From: an uncultured bacterium
Lineage (GTDB): Bacteria; Acidobacteriota; Thermoanaerobaculia; Multivoradales; J023
NCBI GenBank assembly: GCA_965371445.1
Contig: CBDUYN010000012.1
Location: forward strand, 10,878 to 74,877
DNA length: 64,000 bases
Direction: 5' to 3'
A program made the translations under genes and the position numbers. The notes under the pieces are model-generated. The model was given only the letters and a program-made list of their open reading frames with translations, did not search any database and was not told where the DNA came from. Below, one piece after another: positions 6,126 to 13,025 of the stretch (within the stretch, counting starts at the first letter, position 1; each line of letters opens with the position of its first letter).

Positions 6126-7079
6126 GTGCGGGCCGGAGCACAGGCCGGCGAGGCGGCGCTCGAAGCCAGCGTCGCCGACTACGAGTACGCCCGCCAGTCG
6201 CTGGTGGCGACGATTGCCAAGACCTGGTTCCTGGCCACCGAAGCCCGGCTGCAGCGCGCCCTGATCGAGGAGGCGGTGGAGACCTTCCGCGAGATCCTCG
6301 AGGTCGTTGAGATCAAGCAGGAAGTCGGCCAGGTGACCCTCAAAGACGTCTCCCTGGCGCGCGCCGACCTGGCCTCGGCCGAGGAGGCCCTGCGTCAGGC
6401 GCAGAGCGCCTACGAGCAGGTCCAGCGCGGCCTCGAGGTGCTGCTCGGCCGCTATCCGGGCGCCGACCTCGAGGCGGCCGACGACCTCGCGGCGGTGCCG
6501 CCGCCGGTTCCCGTCGGTCTGCCGTCGGACATCGTCGCCCGGCGCCCCGACCTGCAGGCCGCCGAGCGCCGGGTGGCCGCCGCCTTTCTCCTGCAACAGC
6601 AGGCCGAGCTCGCCCGCCTGCCGAGCTTCAACCTCAACGCCGCCGGCGGCGTCGACTCGGGGCTCGACGACGCCATCGGCTCGCTCGCCGCCGGCGTCGT
6701 CGCCCCGATCTTCACCGGCGGCGCGCTGAAAGCCCAGATCGAGACCGCCACCGCCGACCAGCAAGCGGCCATCGCCGCCTACGGCCAGACCCTGCTCGTC
6801 GCCTTCCAAGAGGTCGAGACCGCACTCTCCAACGAAGGGTCCTTCGAGGAGCGCCAGCGCTTCCTCGAGCGCGTGGTCGCCGAGAACGAGAAGGCGCTCG
6901 AGATGGCGCGAGTGCAGTACGAGGTCGGCCAGATCGATCTCTTGAGCGTGCTCCAGCTCCAGCTCCAGGCCCGGGTGATCGGGGCCAGGACGTCGCTGAT
7001 CCGGGTGCGCAACGAGCGCCTGGCGCAGCGGGTCGATCTCCATCTGGCGCTGGGCGGGAGCTTCGAGGAGGGCGGATGA
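6126..7079 (+). pseudogene. TolC/OprM-family outer-membrane efflux protein, C-terminal half only (second repeat)
   Basis: 317 aa with typical OMF helical repeat motifs (ASVADYEYARQSLVATIAKTWF, DLASAEEALRQAQSAYEQ, LPSFNLNAAGG, YEVGQIDLLSVLQLQ). It begins abruptly where the HlyD fragment ends. No N-terminal signal peptide or first repeat is present. Confidence 0.6.
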
Positions 7080-7112
7080 TCCAACTGGCAAGAGCAACGA
7101 AGGAATCACGAA

Positions 7113-7491
7113 ATGAGATCAGATCACCAGGATGCAGCGCTCCGATCACGGCCAAGAGGCATGAGTCGGGTCCTTGCGGGTTTTTTGCTGCTCGCCCTGG
7201 CCACCGCCCCTGGATCAGGATGTCGACGGTCGGCAGCTCGAGCGACCTGCGCGGCTACACCCAGGGCCGCTTCCGCGACCTCGCGGCCGCGTGGGCCCTG
7301 GTCGAATACCGGCACATGACGGGCAAGAAGCTGTGGAAGCTCGGTCGGCAGGGGGTCGCGGTCTGGGGCGGCCTCGGCTTCATCGGCGAGGATTTCGGCG
7401 ATTTCAGCGGCCCCGGCGCAACCTGCGGTTGGACCTGGGTTGGGGCTACGACGAGATCGGCTTCTATCTCAACTTCACCGAGGCGTTTTGA
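7113..7491 (+). pseudogene. Remnant of an Omp85/ShlB-type outer-membrane transporter (signal peptide plus last beta-strands)
   Basis: ATG 7113 gives a signal peptide (MSRVLAGFLLLALATAPGSG). A second frame gives DLRGYTQGRFRDLAAAWALVEYRH...WGGLGFIGEDFGDFSG. A third frame gives RNLRLDLGWGYDEIGFYLNFTEAF-stop, the canonical terminal-Phe beta-barrel end. Three frames within 380 bp. Confidence 0.4.
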
Positions 7492-7567
7492 GGCCATGGA
7501 CGCGAGCGCCCGCACCCTCCATCACCTTGCCGATCCGCTCGTGGCTGGTGATCACGAACTTCGAACC

Positions 7568-7906
7568 TCACTCGTCGTCGATCATGGCCCGCAGCCGGAC
7601 CAGCAGCTCAGGGAGCTCGTCATTCGCGGTCTTCCAGACGATGTCGTGATTGACGTCGAAGTAGGCGTGAATCAGACGGTTGCGCATCGACACGATGAGC
7701 GGCCACGGAATGTCCGGCGCCTCGTTTCGCGCCCCCTCGGAAAGCTGGCCCGCCGCCTCGCCGATGACCTCGATCGCGCGCACCAGTGCGAAGAGGAGCA
7801 TTCGGTCGGAGTCCAGATCCGCGCGCTGGCGGCCCGAAACGAACTCCAGCGCCGTCTCTGCCGCCTCGATCATGTGCAGCAGCCGGACTCGGTCCTCAGG
7901 CTGCAT
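7568..7906 (-). CDS. hepT: HepT-like toxin (DUF86, HEPN-fold) of a HepT/MntA toxin-antitoxin pair
   Basis: 112 aa with an R-x4-HAY-type HEPN motif ([16 protein letters not shown]). Its ATG overlaps the last codons of the upstream mntA gene. Confidence 0.8.
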
Positions 7907-8195
7907 ACTGCACCTCGGCCGAGCGAACCACCTCGGCTCGGAAGTGGCGGCTCAGATCTTGAGCGGTACGCAGGTCTACCTGGCGGCCGCCCAGCAAAGC
8001 CGTTAGCTCCGCCTCAATGGCCGCCAGTCCCAGCAGCCCGGGCGCCGCGCCAGGCTCAAACTCCACCAGCAGATCGACGTCACTGTCCGGCCGATCCTCG
8101 CCCTTCAGCACCGAGCCGAAGAGTGACAGCCGGCGGATCTGATGGCGCCGGCACAACTCAGCCAGGGCCTTCTGATCCACAGGGATTCTTTTCAT
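7896..8195 (-). CDS. mntA: MntA-like minimal nucleotidyltransferase antitoxin
   Basis: 99 aa with the pol-beta NTase motif [22 protein letters not shown]. Lies immediately upstream of hepT and overlaps it. Confidence 0.8.
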
Positions 8196-8351
8196 ATCGT
8201 CGACCTCTCGTCACAGCAGATCTGATGGCGCCGCCCGCGGCGTCTCGGTACTTTCCCGCGCCAGCCGGGAGACCTCCGGCCAACTCACCAGGCCATTGTA
8301 GGACAGCGTTTCCTGCGCGCAAACTCTCGATCGCTTAGAAGAGAGACGAAG

Positions 8352-9233
8352 ATGAAGACGAAGATGGAGACCGCGGGGAGCGCCCGCACCCTGGAGCTCG
8401 AGAGCGCCGACGGCACGCGGCTCCACGCCTCGCTGTTCGAGGCCGCGGAGCCGGTGGCGGGTCTGGTGATGATGCACGGCATGCAGAGCCATGCCGGCTG
8501 GTTCGAGGCCGCGGGGACGGCGAACTCGCTGGCGGCGGCTGGGATCACCTGCCTGGCCTATGACCGCCGCGGCTCGGGGCGGAGCGGCGGGGCGGCCGGC
8601 CACGCCGCCCGCCCCGACGACATGCTCGCCGACCTCGACGCCGCCCGCTCGGGGCTGCGGCGCGAGCTCGAGCAGGCCGGGGTGGCCGAGGCGCCGATGC
8701 ACGCGCTCGCCAACTGCTTCGGCACCCGCATCGTGCTGCCCTATCTCGATCGCGAGCCGCGCGCCTTCGCCTCTCTGACCCTGACCGCGCCAGCGACCCA
8801 CATGAGCTCGCGGGCGGATTACGGCCTCGGCGAGCGCCTCAAGATCCTGCTCGCCCGCGGCGAGCGCACCTTCGCCACGCCGCTCCAGGACGAGTATTTC
8901 ATCTCCGAGGGACGGTGGCTGGAGTGGATCCGGAGCGACGCCCACTCCCTTCGGCAGGTGACCGCCGCTTTCCTCAAGAGCGCCGCGGTCCTCACCGCCC
9001 GCATGAAGACCGCCGCGCGCCGGCTGGAGGTGCCGCTCCTGGTGGTGCTGGGCACTCGCGACCTGATGGTCAGGAACGACGCCATCCGGCGGCAGCTCGT
9101 CGCCCGCTACCGTGGGACGGTGCGGGTGGTCGAGGTCGACGCCGAGCACTACGTCGACTTCACCGAGCACCAGCCCACCCTGGCGGCGGAGGTGCAGGCA
9201 TGGGTCCTGGCCTACTCCGGAGATCGACGATGA
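8352..9233 (+). CDS. Alpha/beta-hydrolase (lysophospholipase / monoacylglycerol-lipase-like, Hydrolase_4 type)
   Basis: 293 aa with LVMMHGMQSHAGWFE, ITCLAYDRRGSGRSGG, and a catalytic-His region near the C-terminus. The stop overlaps the next gene's ATG. Confidence 0.7.
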   Translation: MKTKMETAGSARTLELESADGTRLHASLFEAAEPVAGLVMMHGMQSHAGWFEAAGTANSLAAAGITCLAYDRRGSGRSGGAAGHAARPDDMLADLDAARSGLRRELEQAGVAEAPMHALANCFGTRIVLPYLDREPRAFASLTLTAPATHMSSRADYGLGERLKILLARGERTFATPLQDEYFISEGRWLEWIRSDAHSLRQVTAAFLKSAAVLTARMKTAARRLEVPLLVVLGTRDLMVRNDAIRRQLVARYRGTVRVVEVDAEHYVDFTEHQPTLAAEVQAWVLAYSGDRR

Positions 9234-11242
9234 CCGCCTCCGTCGAACGCTTCGAGCTGTCGGCGGTCGACCTGCCGTTCCGGGTGTCGTTCAAGCACTC
9301 CGCCGCCGAGCGACGGCGCTCGGAGAGTCTTTTCCTCAAGTGCGTCACCGACGGCGGCCCCTTCGGGGGGACGGGTTTCGGCGAGAGCCTGCCGCGGGAA
9401 TACGTCACCGGCGAGAGCCGCGACGGCGCCTTCGAGCTGCTTGCCGAACGCGTCCTGCCGCGGCTCGCCGGCCGCTCCTTCGCCGGCCTCGCCGAGGTCG
9501 AGACCTTCCTCGGCGAGTGCGACGGCCGCGCGCCGGCGGATTGGGTCGACCCCTCGACCCCCCAGGGCGCCCGCATGAGCGCCGCTCCCTTCGAGAAAGC
9601 GACCCGCGACCCGACGGCCGCCCAGGAGGCCCTGCTGCGGCGGATGATGGCGAACAACCGCGACACCGAGTACGGCCGCGAGCACGGCTTCGCCGCGGTC
9701 CGCTCCCTCGACGACTACCGGTCGCGGGTGCCGGTGGTCGACTACGAGGACATCCGCGGGCACATCGACAGGATGACCCGGGGCGAGAAGGGGGTGCTGA
9801 CCGACGAGGACCCTGTGCTCTTTGCCCAGACCTCGGGCACCACCGGGACGCCGAAGTACATCCCGGTCACCCCCACTTGCCAGCTAGGCGGCGGCATGAC
9901 CACCTGGCTGCACTACGCCCGCCGCGATCATCCGGGCATGTTCCGCGACAAGATCGTCACCATCGTCTCGCCGGCGATCGAGGGCCATACCGAGGGCGGG
10001 CTGCCCTTCGGCTCGACCAGCGGCATGGTGGTCAAGGAGATGCCGAAGATCGTGCAGTCGGCCTACGCCGTGCCCTACGACGTCTACGAGATCCACGACT
10101 ACGAGGCCAAGTACTATGCCCTGCTGCGGCTCGGCCTCGGTCGCAGCGTCAGCTTCATCGGCACCGCCAACCCGTCCTCGATCCTCAAGCTGGCGGAGAT
10201 GGCCGACGCGAATGGCGAGCGCTTGATCCGCGACCTGCGCGACGGCACCCTGAGCGACGAGGTCGAGATCCAGTCCGAGGTGCGGCGGGTGATCGAGGGA
10301 ATGATCCGCCCCGATCCTGGGCGCGCTGGCGAGCTTGAGGCGATGCGCGGGCGCCGCGACGGCAAGCTGCTGCCCGCCGACTACTGGCCGCACATGGCGC
10401 TGCTCGGCTGCTGGAAGGGCGGCACGGTCGGCGCCTACGTCGACAAGCTGGGCGCCTGGTACGACCCGAACCAGCAGGGCATGGTGCCGGTGCGCGACAT
10501 GGGCTACCTGGCGTCCGAGGCGCGGATGTCGATTCCGGTGTCGGACGACGGCGCCGGCGGGGTGCTGACCATCCACCTCAACGTCTTCGAGTTCGTGCCG
10601 GTGGAAGAGGTCGACGACCGGCCCGACGAGCCCGGGAGCTGGAGCTTCCTGGGCGCCACCGAGCTCGAGATCGGCCGCGACTATTACGTTTTCGTCACCA
10701 CCACCGGCGGTCTCTACCGCTACGACATGAACGACGTCGTCGAGAGGGTCGACACCTACAACGCCACCCCGGTGATCGTCTTCCGCCGCAAGGGCCGGGG
10801 AATGACCAACCTCACCGGCGAGAAGCTGTCGGTCAACCAGGTGATCGCGGCGATGGGAAAGGCCGGCGAGGCAGTGGGTGTGGGCGTCGGCCACTTCCGC
10901 GCCGAGCCCGATGTTTCCCGCTCGCTCTACGTCTTCAAGGTGGAATTCGAGAGCGCGCTACCGGCGGAGAAGCGCTTCGACTTCCTGGGCCGGCTCGACG
11001 AGTCCCTTGGCGAGCTCAACATCGAGTACCAGGCCAAGCGCGCCAGCGGCCGGCTCGGACCGCCGGTCCTGCAGGTGATGCGGAGCGGCTGGTACGAGCG
11101 CGGCAAGCAGAGCCTGGTCGCCGAGGGCAAGCGCCTGTTCCAGGCCAAGACCGTGCTCCTCGACGCCAAGAGCGGCTACCGCCCGGAGCCGGACGAGCTC
11201 GAGGCGGAGGTAGGCCTGGTGAAAGGTCGTGGAGTACAATGA
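9230..11242 (+). CDS. GH3-family acyl-acid amido synthetase / adenylating enzyme with an N-terminal ~110-aa enolase-superfamily (MR/MLE N-terminal capping domain)-like extension
   Basis: GH3 core starts around residue 115 (NNRDTEYGREHGF...VPVVDYEDIRGHIDRMTRGE...FAQTSGTTGTPKYIPVT...). The N-terminal 110 aa (FELSAVDLPFRVSFKHSAAERRRSESLFLKCVTDGGPFGGTGFGESLPREYVTGES...LPRLAGRSF) matches the MR_MLE_N pattern (PL..PF, tDgG..G.GE, tGEs, P.L.G). No stop separates the two parts. Confidence 0.7.
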   Translation: MTASVERFELSAVDLPFRVSFKHSAAERRRSESLFLKCVTDGGPFGGTGFGESLPREYVTGESRDGAFELLAERVLPRLAGRSFAGLAEVETFLGECDGRAPADWVDPSTPQGARMSAAPFEKATRDPTAAQEALLRRMMANNRDTEYGREHGFAAVRSLDDYRSRVPVVDYEDIRGHIDRMTRGEKGVLTDEDPVLFAQTSGTTGTPKYIPVTPTCQLGGGMTTWLHYARRDHPGMFRDKIVTIVSPAIEGHTEGGLPFGSTSGMVVKEMPKIVQSAYAVPYDVYEIHDYEAKYYALLRLGLGRSVSFIGTANPSSILKLAEMADANGERLIRDLRDGTLSDEVEIQSEVRRVIEGMIRPDPGRAGELEAMRGRRDGKLLPADYWPHMALLGCWKGGTVGAYVDKLGAWYDPNQQGMVPVRDMGYLASEARMSIPVSDDGAGGVLTIHLNVFEFVPVEEVDDRPDEPGSWSFLGATELEIGRDYYVFVTTTGGLYRYDMNDVVERVDTYNATPVIVFRRKGRGMTNLTGEKLSVNQVIAAMGKAGEAVGVGVGHFRAEPDVSRSLYVFKVEFESALPAEKRFDFLGRLDESLGELNIEYQAKRASGRLGPPVLQVMRSGWYERGKQSLVAEGKRLFQAKTVLLDAKSGYRPEPDELEAEVGLVKGRGVQ

Positions 11243-11346
11243 CGAACGTCACGCCTTGCCAGGCCCCCTTGACCATCGCTTCCGCACTCCTCTTCGAGCG
11301 CATCGTTGCGCTCGGCACCTCTCAACCTCCAAGAAGGAGAAAAGAA

Positions 11347-11874
11347 ATGAAGAAAACGACATGCTTGTTCCTCCTCCTCGCCCTGCTGTGTGTGGCGAGC
11401 TCGTTTGCCGGGATCTCAGTGGATCACGACAAGAACGCCGACTTCTCGAAGTACAAGACCTTCACCATCAGGGAAGCGACGCCGGCGATCAATCCGCTGA
11501 TGCGCGAGCGGCTCGTCAAGGCGATCGAGGAGGGCCTCACGGCGGAGGGTCTCACGAAGGCCGACGACGGAGCGCACCTCGAGGTCGTCATCCACACCTC
11601 GCTCGAAAAGGAGATGCACATCACGGCCGACGACTGGGGCTACGGCGGCTATCGCGGCTGGCGCGGTTGGGGCGGCTGGGGTACGACGACCGTCGACGTC
11701 CAGAACGTCGCCGTGGGCACCCTGATGCTCGACATGGTCGAAACCGCTTCGGACAAGCTGGTGTGGCGCGGCATCGCGACCGACTCGATCCCCAAGAAGA
11801 GCGAGAAGCTCGAGAAGAAGGTCTACAAGGCCGTCGACAAGCTCTTCCGGCATTTTCCGCCGGAGGCGGAATGA
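11347..11874 (+). CDS. DUF4136-family secreted lipoprotein, copy 1 of 3
   Basis: Signal/lipobox (MKKTTCLFLLLALLCVASSFAG), family N-terminal signature (VDHDKNADFSKYKTFTI), RBS aaggag upstream. Paralogues at 53743..54222 (-) and 56107..56670 (+). Confidence 0.6.
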   Translation: MKKTTCLFLLLALLCVASSFAGISVDHDKNADFSKYKTFTIREATPAINPLMRERLVKAIEEGLTAEGLTKADDGAHLEVVIHTSLEKEMHITADDWGYGGYRGWRGWGGWGTTTVDVQNVAVGTLMLDMVETASDKLVWRGIATDSIPKKSEKLEKKVYKAVDKLFRHFPPEAE

Positions 11875-11950
11875 AGAGACACTGCCGCCGGAGGCGGAAT
11901 GAAGAGACACTGCCGCCGGAGGCGGAATGAAGAGACACTGCCGCCGGAGG
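11857..11950. repeat. Tandem direct repeat, 28-bp unit, 3 perfect copies plus one degenerate copy
   Basis: ccgccggaggcggaatgaagagacactg at 11857-11884, 11885-11912 and 11913-11940. A truncated fourth copy (ccgccggagg-aatgacgag) follows. Copy 1 contains the stop codon of the DUF4136 gene (PPEAE-stop), so the repeat reiterates the gene's 3' end into the intergenic region before the RBS of the next gene. Confidence 0.9.
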
Positions 11951-11980
11951 AATGACGAGAAATCCGGAAAGGAGAAAGTG

Positions 11981-12403
11981 ATGAAGAAGAAAGCAGCCTT
12001 CGTGGCCATCCTGGCCTCCCTGGCGCTCGGCGCGGCCGGCGTCTCGGCCCAGGAAGACGTGATCGACAAAACGATCGACGCTTGTAAAGTCGAGATCGAG
12101 AAGTACTGCAGCCAGGTCACGCCGGGCGAAGGACGCCTGCTGGCCTGCTTCTATGCCCACGGCGACAAGCTCTCGGGGCGCTGTGAGTACGCCCTCTACA
12201 CCGCGGCGGCCGAGCTCGAGCAGTTCGTGGCGGCCGTGACCCACCTGGCGACACAGTGCCTGGACGACCTGGAGAAGCACTGCGCCGAGGTCGAGATGGG
12301 TGAGGGGCGCGTGGCGTCCTGCCTCCTGGAGCACAAGAAGGAGGTCACCGAGGGCTGCAGGAAGGCCATCGACGACACGGGGCTCGAAGTCGCCGACGAC
12401 TAG
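11981..12403 (+). CDS. Small secreted cysteine-rich protein with two ~55-aa Cys-rich repeats
   Basis: Signal peptide (MKKKAAFVAILASLALGAAGVSA), RBS ggagaaag. Repeat 1: C-KVEIEKYC-SQVTPGEGRLLACFYAHGDKLSGRC. Repeat 2: C-LDDLEKHC-AEVEMGEGRVASCLLEHKKEVTEGC. Confidence 0.55.
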   Translation: MKKKAAFVAILASLALGAAGVSAQEDVIDKTIDACKVEIEKYCSQVTPGEGRLLACFYAHGDKLSGRCEYALYTAAAELEQFVAAVTHLATQCLDDLEKHCAEVEMGEGRVASCLLEHKKEVTEGCRKAIDDTGLEVADD

Positions 12404-12455
12404 CTCGAGACCGGCAATCGATACGAAAAAACCCTGAGAACACGGAGGTGTGAAC

Positions 12456-13025
12456 ATGAAAAGGACGCTCCTGATCACCGTCTCGCTCTCTCTCGCCTGG
12501 GCGTCGCTCGCCTCGGCCCAGGCCCCTCCCGTCGCCGCACCGACGCAGCAAAAGACCCTGGCGGCGACGATGAACGTCTACGTCTTCCCGGCCGACGGGC
12601 AGACCCCCGAGCAGCAGAACCGGCACGAAGCCGAGTGCTACGCCTGGTCGGTGAACAACACCAAGACCGATCCGTTCGACCTCGCCAAACAGGCGGAGCA
12701 GGCGGCGATGACGGCGGAGCAGCAGAAGGCGAAAGTCGAGCAAAAGACCGAGGGCGCGGGCGCCAAGGGCGCGCTGGCCGGCGCCGCCGCCGGCGCTCTG
12801 ATCGGGGAGATCGCCAGCAACGACGCCGGCGGGGGAGCGGCGTGGGGCGCCGCCGCCGGCGCGATCGCCGGGCGCCGCAGGGCGCGCCAGGCCAAGCAGG
12901 AGGCAGACCAGCAGATCGACCAGCAGACTCGGCAGGTGCAGCAGGCGTCGGCGGAGCAGATCGAGGGCTTCAAGAAAGCCTTCAGCATTTGCATGGAAGC
13001 CAAGGAGTATCTCGTGAAGTTCTGA
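12456..13025 (+). CDS. Module gene A: secreted glycine-zipper protein
   Basis: Signal peptide, RBS ggagg. Gly-zipper (GAGAKGALAGAAAGALIGEIASNDAGGGAAWGAAAGAIAG), then a Q-rich helix (QQIDQQTRQVQQASAEQIEGFKKAF). Close paralogue at 54787..55356 with ~80% nucleotide identity in places. Confidence 0.65.
   Translation: MKRTLLITVSLSLAWASLASAQAPPVAAPTQQKTLAATMNVYVFPADGQTPEQQNRHEAECYAWSVNNTKTDPFDLAKQAEQAAMTAEQQKAKVEQKTEGAGAKGALAGAAAGALIGEIASNDAGGGAAWGAAAGAIAGRRRARQAKQEADQQIDQQTRQVQQASAEQIEGFKKAFSICMEAKEYLVKF

Follow-up and report, generated by a model that had tools for sequence, protein, structure and literature searches.

Enzymes of the GH3 family activate a carboxylic acid by adenylation and couple it to an amino acid, and N-acyl amino acids are a class of product that they make. 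To our knowledge, OlsH is the only bacterial GH3 case that has been characterised. In Singulisphaera acidiphila, the GH3-like OlsH and its partner OlsI make ornithine lipid (PMC12493201). With ATP, OlsH converts ornithine and a free fatty acid to N-acyl-ornithine, and OlsI, encoded in the same operon, is an O-acyltransferase of the alpha/beta-hydrolase fold (PMC12493201). The locus described here lies in a stretch of 64,000 nucleotides (the window) from an uncultured bacterium of the Acidobacteriota (Thermoanaerobaculia; Multivoradales; J023), corresponding to positions 10,878 to 74,877 of contig CBDUYN010000012.1 in assembly GCA_965371445.1. It contains an alpha/beta-hydrolase gene (window positions 8352-9233, + strand) followed by a 670-codon open reading frame (ORF; 9230-11242, +), in which the N-terminal part of an enolase-superfamily protein runs directly into a GH3 body. 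This ORF is, with high confidence, a chimera that arose from one 2,373-bp in-frame deletion in a conserved four-gene cluster.

As in the OlsH/OlsI system, a GH3 body with three nucleotide-binding motifs is found beside a Hydrolase_4 gene, whereas the ancestral cluster of the window comprises two further genes, for an enolase-superfamily enzyme and a Ser/Thr kinase, but lacks an OlsG methyltransferase. The nearest NCBIfam model of the chimera is that of OlsH (NF052613, lyso-ornithine lipid synthetase), which is matched with 115.3 bits against a cut-off of 620; judged by this score, the window GH3 is a distant relative of OlsH and not an equivalog. No OlsI-named NCBIfam model was matched by the window hydrolase, which is adjacent to the chimera and translationally coupled to it.

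The GH3 part can also be compared with the plant enzymes JAR1 (4epl), GH3.5 (5kod), GH3.6 (9fwd), and GH3.12 (4epm), which carry the same Pfam GH3 N, M, and C domains and have a fold like that modelled for an orthologue of the window protein, P0006. Sequence identity to these is only about 20%, however, the window host is bacterial, and the first 12 residues of its GH3 enzyme are swapped for a foreign stub of 113 residues. This stub is homologous to the capping domain of enzymes of the muconate-lactonising enzyme (MLE) subgroup, represented by 2p88, L-Ala-D/L-Glu epimerase (1jpm and 1tkk), and N-acylamino-acid racemase (1sja). The intact enolase-family orthologue (ENO) shares the KxK motif and three metal ligands with these enzymes, whereas in the window the barrel is wholly deleted. 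As an event, the fusion resembles the chimeric genes that form in bacteria by in-frame deletion between neighbours, with a single deletion, a very short microhomology, and upstream start signals driving a downstream gene body; nothing essential differs.

Origin and translation of the chimeric gene

The frame from the ATG at 9230 to the stop codon at 11240-11242 (+) is open throughout and encodes 670 amino acids. Residues 114-670 constitute the GH3-like acyl-acid amido synthetase body (9569-11242, +), which extends from ancestral codon 13 to the stop and shows 86-89% nucleotide identity to the loci of relatives designated L001, L082, and L085. The Pfam GH3 N, M, and C domains (family entries PF03321, PF23571, and PF23572) are matched at residues 121-642 with 237.7, 59.8, and 50.0 bits (cut-off 23.6 each). 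With all three domains far above the Pfam gathering scores, the GH3 assignment made earlier from the letters and ORF translations of the window, hereafter the sequence-only reading, was confirmed. The motif SGTTGTPKYIP is located at residues 202-212 of the chimera. The columns of TSGTTGTPK (201-209), GYLASE (425-430), and YRYDMND (496-502) are invariant or nearly so across orthologues; we take these to be the three GH3 nucleotide-binding motifs, by comparison with the plant enzymes and PMC12493201. Codons 1-113 (9230-9568, +) are the remnant of an enolase-superfamily gene of the MLE subgroup and, by blastn and PDB matches, comprise most of the N-terminal capping domain without barrel or catalytic residues. 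The junction-spanning peptide reads ...STPQGARMSAAPFEK. The same 670-amino acid sequence (P0001) is listed from NCBI, ENA, and Logan and is carried by a contig of 100,166 bp.

Comparison with L001, the contig that encodes P0006 (81% identical), shows what has been removed. L001 carries four separate genes: a hydrolase (6486-7337, 283 amino acids, Hydrolase_4 101.3 bits), ENO (7334-8494, 386 amino acids, MR_MLE_C 142.8 bits), a Ser/Thr kinase (KIN; 8523-9989, 488 amino acids, Pkinase 134.8 bits), and GH3 (10001-11692, 563 amino acids, with precomputed GH3 N/M/C matches). By blastn, L001 6494-7666 aligned to window 8390-9571 with 84% identity and L001 10037-11679 aligned to window 9569-11211 with 86% identity, and the window was found to be short of 2,373 bp relative to L001, which is exactly 791 codons and therefore in frame. 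A three-way nucleotide comparison placed the deletion junction at 9569-9571 (+), where 3 bp of microhomology, GCC, are common to both parental sequences. Each breakpoint can also be seen in further relatives. In L082 and L083 (89% nucleotide identity) and in L085, the kinase lies directly upstream of GH3 and similarity to the window sets in at 9569, at codon 13 of their GH3; in L084, which holds an ENO fragment (86% nucleotide identity, from window position 9201), homology ends at 9571. The order hydrolase, full-length ENO (about 386 amino acids), kinase (about 488 amino acids), and GH3 (about 563 amino acids) was also found in eight other genomes from several phyla. Fourteen aligned GH3 homologues each begin with MAGIASFLIxLKAR and are collinear with the window protein from A114-R115 on. 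A tblastn search found no second copy of ENO or of the kinase elsewhere in the 64-kb window.

The ancestral order was alpha/beta-hydrolase, MLE-subgroup enolase-superfamily enzyme, Ser/Thr protein kinase, and GH3-like ATP-dependent acyl-acid:amino-acid ligase, and the deletion joined ENO codon 113 to GH3 codon 13 over the GCC microhomology. The ENO barrel with all of its catalytic residues and the entire kinase gene were lost, as were the GH3 ribosome-binding site, start codon, and first 12 codons, which encode the first half of the N-terminal helix. The ENO-type and kinase steps of the ancestral pathway are missing from the window locus. The sequence-only reading had left the choice between a functional substrate-recognition add-on and a scar of the in-frame deletion of an upstream enolase-family gene. 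Every orthologue is without the extension, which does not support the former and comes close in spirit to the refutation that the sequence-only reading had named for itself, and gene order and breakpoints in relatives support the latter. The full extent of the scar is wider than had been proposed, with the whole kinase gene and 12 GH3 codons gone in addition to the enolase-family sequence.

Because neither Pfam nor NCBIfam gave a match to residues 1-115 alone at E<=1, homology of the stub had to be established through orthologues and PDB sequences. The N-termini of enolase-superfamily proteins share 79-83% identity with the stub (P0121, E 3.8e-55; ENO of L001), and a database search with residues 1-115 returned 11 short proteins that are up to 83% identical. 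Intact relatives, where their contigs permit, run on past the stub region with the enolase-superfamily helix ...PQGAAWCAVDLALLD, and one of these has a precomputed MR_MLE_N match; a full-length orthologue scored 20.6 bits against MR_MLE_N, under the cut-off of 22. In a phmmer search of PDB sequences, the stub matched the N-terminal ~85 residues of MLE-subgroup enzymes, with 2p88 at E 2.2e-4 and 1jpm, L-Ala-D/L-Glu epimerase, at E 4.7e-4. These identities and PDB matches agree with the capping-domain pattern that had been read in the first ~110 residues. The absence of a barrel domain after the stub was likewise confirmed, as the window protein has no MR_MLE_C match and the region is deleted in comparison with relatives. 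The KxK motif, metal ligands, and second base are also missing from the window protein, and the stub itself stops within the capping domain, ahead of its last helix, AAWCAVDLALLD. No enolase-type chemistry is therefore possible, and the chimera is not an enolase-superfamily enzyme despite the homology of its stub to the capping domain.

The remnant also contains a 3-codon insertion (GPF; 9356-9364, +) in the turn before the conserved GxGE, which is absent from L001 and L084 in the protein alignment. The insertion gives GGPFGGTGFGE in place of the GASGFGE or AGVMGFGE of relatives and may be a small imperfect duplication.

To place the fused state among relatives, a set of 81 loci was compiled that comprised L001 and 80 further loci from species-representative genomes, in which the four L001 proteins were mapped by tblastn. 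An ENO gene was found within the flank in 65 of the 81 loci, complete in 62 and interrupted by the end of the contig in 3, and ENO is directly upstream of GH3 in 38 of the 81 (Planctomycetota, Gammaproteobacteria, Binatia, Dehalococcoidia, and others). The order hydrolase-ENO-KIN-GH3 recurs in Verrucomicrobia, Acidobacteriota, and other metagenome-assembled genomes, and none of the 81 loci contained an internally truncated ENO or an ENO fused to GH3. The arrangement with four (or three) genes is therefore ancestral, and that of the window is derived.

The sequence-only reading had suggested that the same fusion be sought in other genomes, and none was found. The other 119 listed GH3 homologues have no extension, measuring 502-571 amino acids and covering 75-84% of the query. 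When residues 1-250 were scanned with HMMER against 1.84 billion cluster representatives, none of the best 150 matches spanned the junction, and the matches lay on one side of it, in ENO or in GH3. In JGI metagenome contigs, there were 0 matches to the exact junction 24-mer and 0 to a degenerate junction pattern (PQGA joined to RxSAxPFEK), which in a control matched the window once. With this single occurrence, the fused architecture does not constitute a family.

Two sets of apparent fusions were rejected. In loci such as L023, L028, L030, and L031, query residues ~3-663 seemed to be contained within 2.0-2.4 kb, but mapping by tblastn resolved these spans into joined matches to separate genes, some of them on the opposite strand. 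P0163 (807 amino acids) has an ENO N-terminus and a GH3 motif, with arginine- and proline-rich out-of-frame text between them. It matches no Pfam domain and is a gene call that reads through a frameshift in high-GC sequence, although it could be taken for a fusion.

The hydrolase that precedes the chimera (8352-9233, +; 293 amino acids) is the first gene of the cluster and is intact, matching Pfam Hydrolase_4 with 99.6 bits as well as Abhydrolase_1/6. Its residues 4-281 show 81% amino acid identity to the L001 hydrolase, with a ratio of nonsynonymous to synonymous substitution rates (dN/dS) of 0.35. The ATG at 9230-9232 overlaps the hydrolase TGA at 9231-9233 as ATGA, in agreement with the coupling noted earlier. 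A GGAG Shine-Dalgarno sequence (9219-9222, +), located 7 nucleotides before this ATG, is the native ENO site that now serves the chimera, and with an anti-Shine-Dalgarno duplex energy of -6.6 kcal/mol it equals the sites that precede ENO in L001 and L084. In relatives, the native start of GH3 itself is preceded by AGGAG (-7.3), a site that falls in the deleted stretch.

Since the deletion is in frame and no stop codon occurs between 9230 and 9575, GH3 is most likely now translated from the ENO start, as a 670-amino acid chimera. The product would be a GH3 enzyme carrying a catalytically dead N-terminal stub of 113 residues. An internal start near 9577 with its own ribosome-binding site had also been considered. 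The in-frame ATG concerned is codon 116 (9575-9577, +), a position at which orthologues vary (I/S/K/L) and which is not the ancestral start; its Shine-Dalgarno energy is -3.1 kcal/mol, no better than background, with 49% of in-frame ORF positions equal or stronger. Nor do orthologues begin at this methionine. They start 12 codons upstream of the junction, and that start and its AGGAG are gone here with the deleted stretch.

No sign of decay is apparent in the GH3 body, which looks intact by the available comparisons. Among 112 columns with a conservation of 90% or more across 48 orthologues, it has 0 deviations, compared with 0-4 in intact orthologues, and pairwise dN/dS for GH3 is 0.22-0.29 with the window sequence and 0.24-0.31 without it. 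The AlphaFold (AF2) model of P0006 has a mean predicted local distance difference test score (pLDDT) of 90.8, with residues 2-25 forming one long helix, and it superimposes on plant GH3 structures with TM scores of 0.78-0.81 (0.81 for JAR1, 4epl). The chimera does not have a complete native GH3 N-terminus, its first 12 residues being replaced by the stub. By its domains, motifs, and predicted fold it belongs to the GH3 family, but with a damaged N-terminus. By analogy with OlsH and OlsI, the body has probably kept the activity of the family, in which a carboxylic acid, here likely a fatty acid, is adenylated and then coupled to an amino acid, and the hydrolase would be its partner.

Structure prediction had been proposed as a means of seeing whether the N-terminal part packs onto the GH3 body. 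The prediction was run, with an AF2 model of the chimera at pLDDT 62 and residues 1-106 below 50 from a 15-row alignment without depth over the stub, and it was uninformative on folding or packing. In the paired chimera/GH3/ENO alignment, MAFFT twice placed ENO fragments on the GH3 N-terminus. The ENO N-termini (M.RIASFEL) resemble those of GH3 (MAGIASFLI) closely enough to mislead the program, which is probably coincidence.

The ancestral cluster and its likely pathway

Across the relatives (L002-L081), genes for GH3 and ENO co-occur with one or, in some cases, two alpha/beta-hydrolase genes and in many cases with a Ser/Thr kinase gene; gene order varies. The hosts belong to Verrucomicrobia, Acidobacteriota, Planctomycetota, Desulfobacterota, Gammaproteobacteria, Binatia, and Dehalococcoidia. 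A literature search found no paper describing this gene cluster.

Intact ENO resembles most closely enzymes whose substrates are N-acyl amino acids and dipeptides. Its best PDB matches are 2p88, dipeptide epimerases, and N-acylamino-acid racemases, and its best NCBIfam matches are a muconate-cycloisomerase subfamily model and DgcA, N-acetyl-D-Glu racemase. The closest structure to the stub, 2p88, is deposited only as an MR/MLE family protein; we take it to be an N-succinyl-Arg/Lys racemase. In 57 of 57 intact ENO orthologues the KxK motif and the metal ligands D/E/D are kept, and in the same 57 an arginine occupies the position of the second catalytic lysine, at third metal ligand +24. The arginine lies in the motif N-x-R-x-S-K-x-G-G and is R277 in the ENO of L001. 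The lysine position in question is presumably that of K263 in Amycolatopsis NSAR, in which the corresponding residues are K163/K263 and D189/E214/D239. Because this arginine is invariant, the ENO family is probably not a classical two-base racemase. The variant appears unusual for the MLE subgroup, and these residues suggest a one-base chemistry.

Natural fusions that involve the same GH3 clade were also noted. P0249 and P0250 are fusions of FA_hydroxylase and GH3, and P0173 (1,207 amino acids) is a fusion of FA_hydroxylase, GH3, and a complete ENO, in a domain order opposite to that of the window chimera. As Rosetta-stone evidence, these proteins connect this GH3 clade both with fatty acids and with its ENO partner.

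By analogy with OlsH and OlsI, the ancestral cluster probably encodes an uncharacterised N-acyl-amino-acid or aminolipid pathway related to theirs, and the idea of a small operon for an acyl or amide metabolite, put forward in the sequence-only reading, held up to the same extent. A more specific proposal is tentative, with the balance somewhat against it: the cluster may specify an undescribed N-acyl-amino-acid/aminolipid pathway in which a one-base ENO modifies the GH3 product, and the window may be a natural ENO/kinase knock-out. In a weaker variant, the chimeric protein itself might be active and kept by selection. Synthesis of an aminolipid by one enzyme of the GH3 class was shown only recently (OlsH/OlsI, 2025). 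The scar draws attention to a widely conserved, unstudied cluster around a bacterial GH3 and an unusual enolase-superfamily enzyme, which is the more promising lead. Culture or sampling of the source organism, if feasible, would offer a natural loss-of-function contrast with intact relatives for the ENO and kinase steps.

Alternative explanations

The stub might be part of a selected, functional fusion in which a capping-domain fragment serves GH3 as a substrate-recognition or docking module. Retention of the frame would fit such a role, as would the conserved residues kept in the remnant and its low dN/dS (0.16-0.26), and a functional link between GH3 and ENO is indicated both by their adjacency in 38 of 81 loci and by P0173. 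However, the architecture is found on one contig alone and is absent from the 119 listed homologues, the 81 loci, the best 150 of 1.84 billion representatives, and the JGI contigs, and in P0173 the domains are arranged the other way round, with the enolase domain complete. The stub moreover breaks off inside the capping domain before the helix AAWCAVDLALLD, the same event destroyed the kinase gene and the GH3 N-terminus, and about 1 in 3 deletions would be expected to keep the frame by chance, so that a selected fusion is hardly credible.

An assembly or sequencing artefact, in which case the real genome would have an intact four-gene cluster, is very improbable. The source contig appears to be of metagenome type, only one contig is recorded as encoding the protein, an exact look-up of P0001 gave no gene record, and the exact junction 24-mer was absent from JGI metagenome contigs. 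Against this, the breakpoints share 3 bp only, far less than a k-mer assembler would need in order to collapse across them, and both flanks are collinear with relatives and similarly diverged (84% and 86%), hence no chimera of two organisms. The identical 670-amino acid product in NCBI, ENA, and Logan, which may or may not represent independent assemblies, also speaks against an artefact. Whether GH3 might instead be made as a stand-alone, N-terminally shortened enzyme from the ATG at 9575, with the upstream 115 codons irrelevant or a translated leader, bears on the product and not on the junction. This ATG lies 2 codons past the junction, where orthologues have I/S/K/L, and might compensate for the lost start; a weak AGGG is found 7 nucleotides upstream of it. 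Its duplex energy, however, is equalled or surpassed at 49% of in-frame positions, and ribosomes from the strong coupled start at 9230 meet no stop before 9575, which makes this explanation unlikely.

Some observations weigh against the reading preferred here. The fused allele comes from one contig only, and its fixation and the reality of the junction rest on indirect arguments. The dN/dS of the stub is not raised, that is, the remnant changes amino acids no faster than do intact relatives; this fits a recent deletion, and some retained constraint would fit equally. Loss of half of helix 1, as modelled in the orthologue, may inactivate or destabilise GH3. Finally, the aminolipid link would hold by analogy only, given an OlsH score of 115 bits against 620 and a hydrolase without an OlsI-type match.

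The fusion is an ordinary one-off deletion scar and not a new enzyme design. Annotation pipelines or surveys of domain architecture could mistake it for a new enolase-GH3 enzyme, whereas no catalysis can come from the enolase part of this chimeric 670-amino acid gene model.

Flanking genes

Just upstream of the hydrolase, at 7568-8195 (-), Pfam identified a toxin-antitoxin pair consisting of a HepT-like RNase and an MntA-type nucleotidyltransferase. The pair is located between a stretch syntenic with L001 (7410-7492) and the hydrolase start at 8352 and looks like an insertion relative to L001.

Downstream of the chimera, the next ORF (11239-11874, +) matches Pfam DUF4136 with 125.5 bits, whereas in L001 GH3 is followed by a different gene. 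A possible ATG of the DUF4136 ORF overlaps the GH3 stop codon as ATGA; this overlap may be incidental, because a lipoprotein-like signal sequence, MKKTTCLFLLLALLCVASS, starts 36 codons further in. Small secreted-looking proteins are encoded at 11927-13025 (+), one with two Cys-rich repeats (PF00839, 55.6 bits) and another with a glycine-zipper (PF13488), and are unrelated to the fusion.

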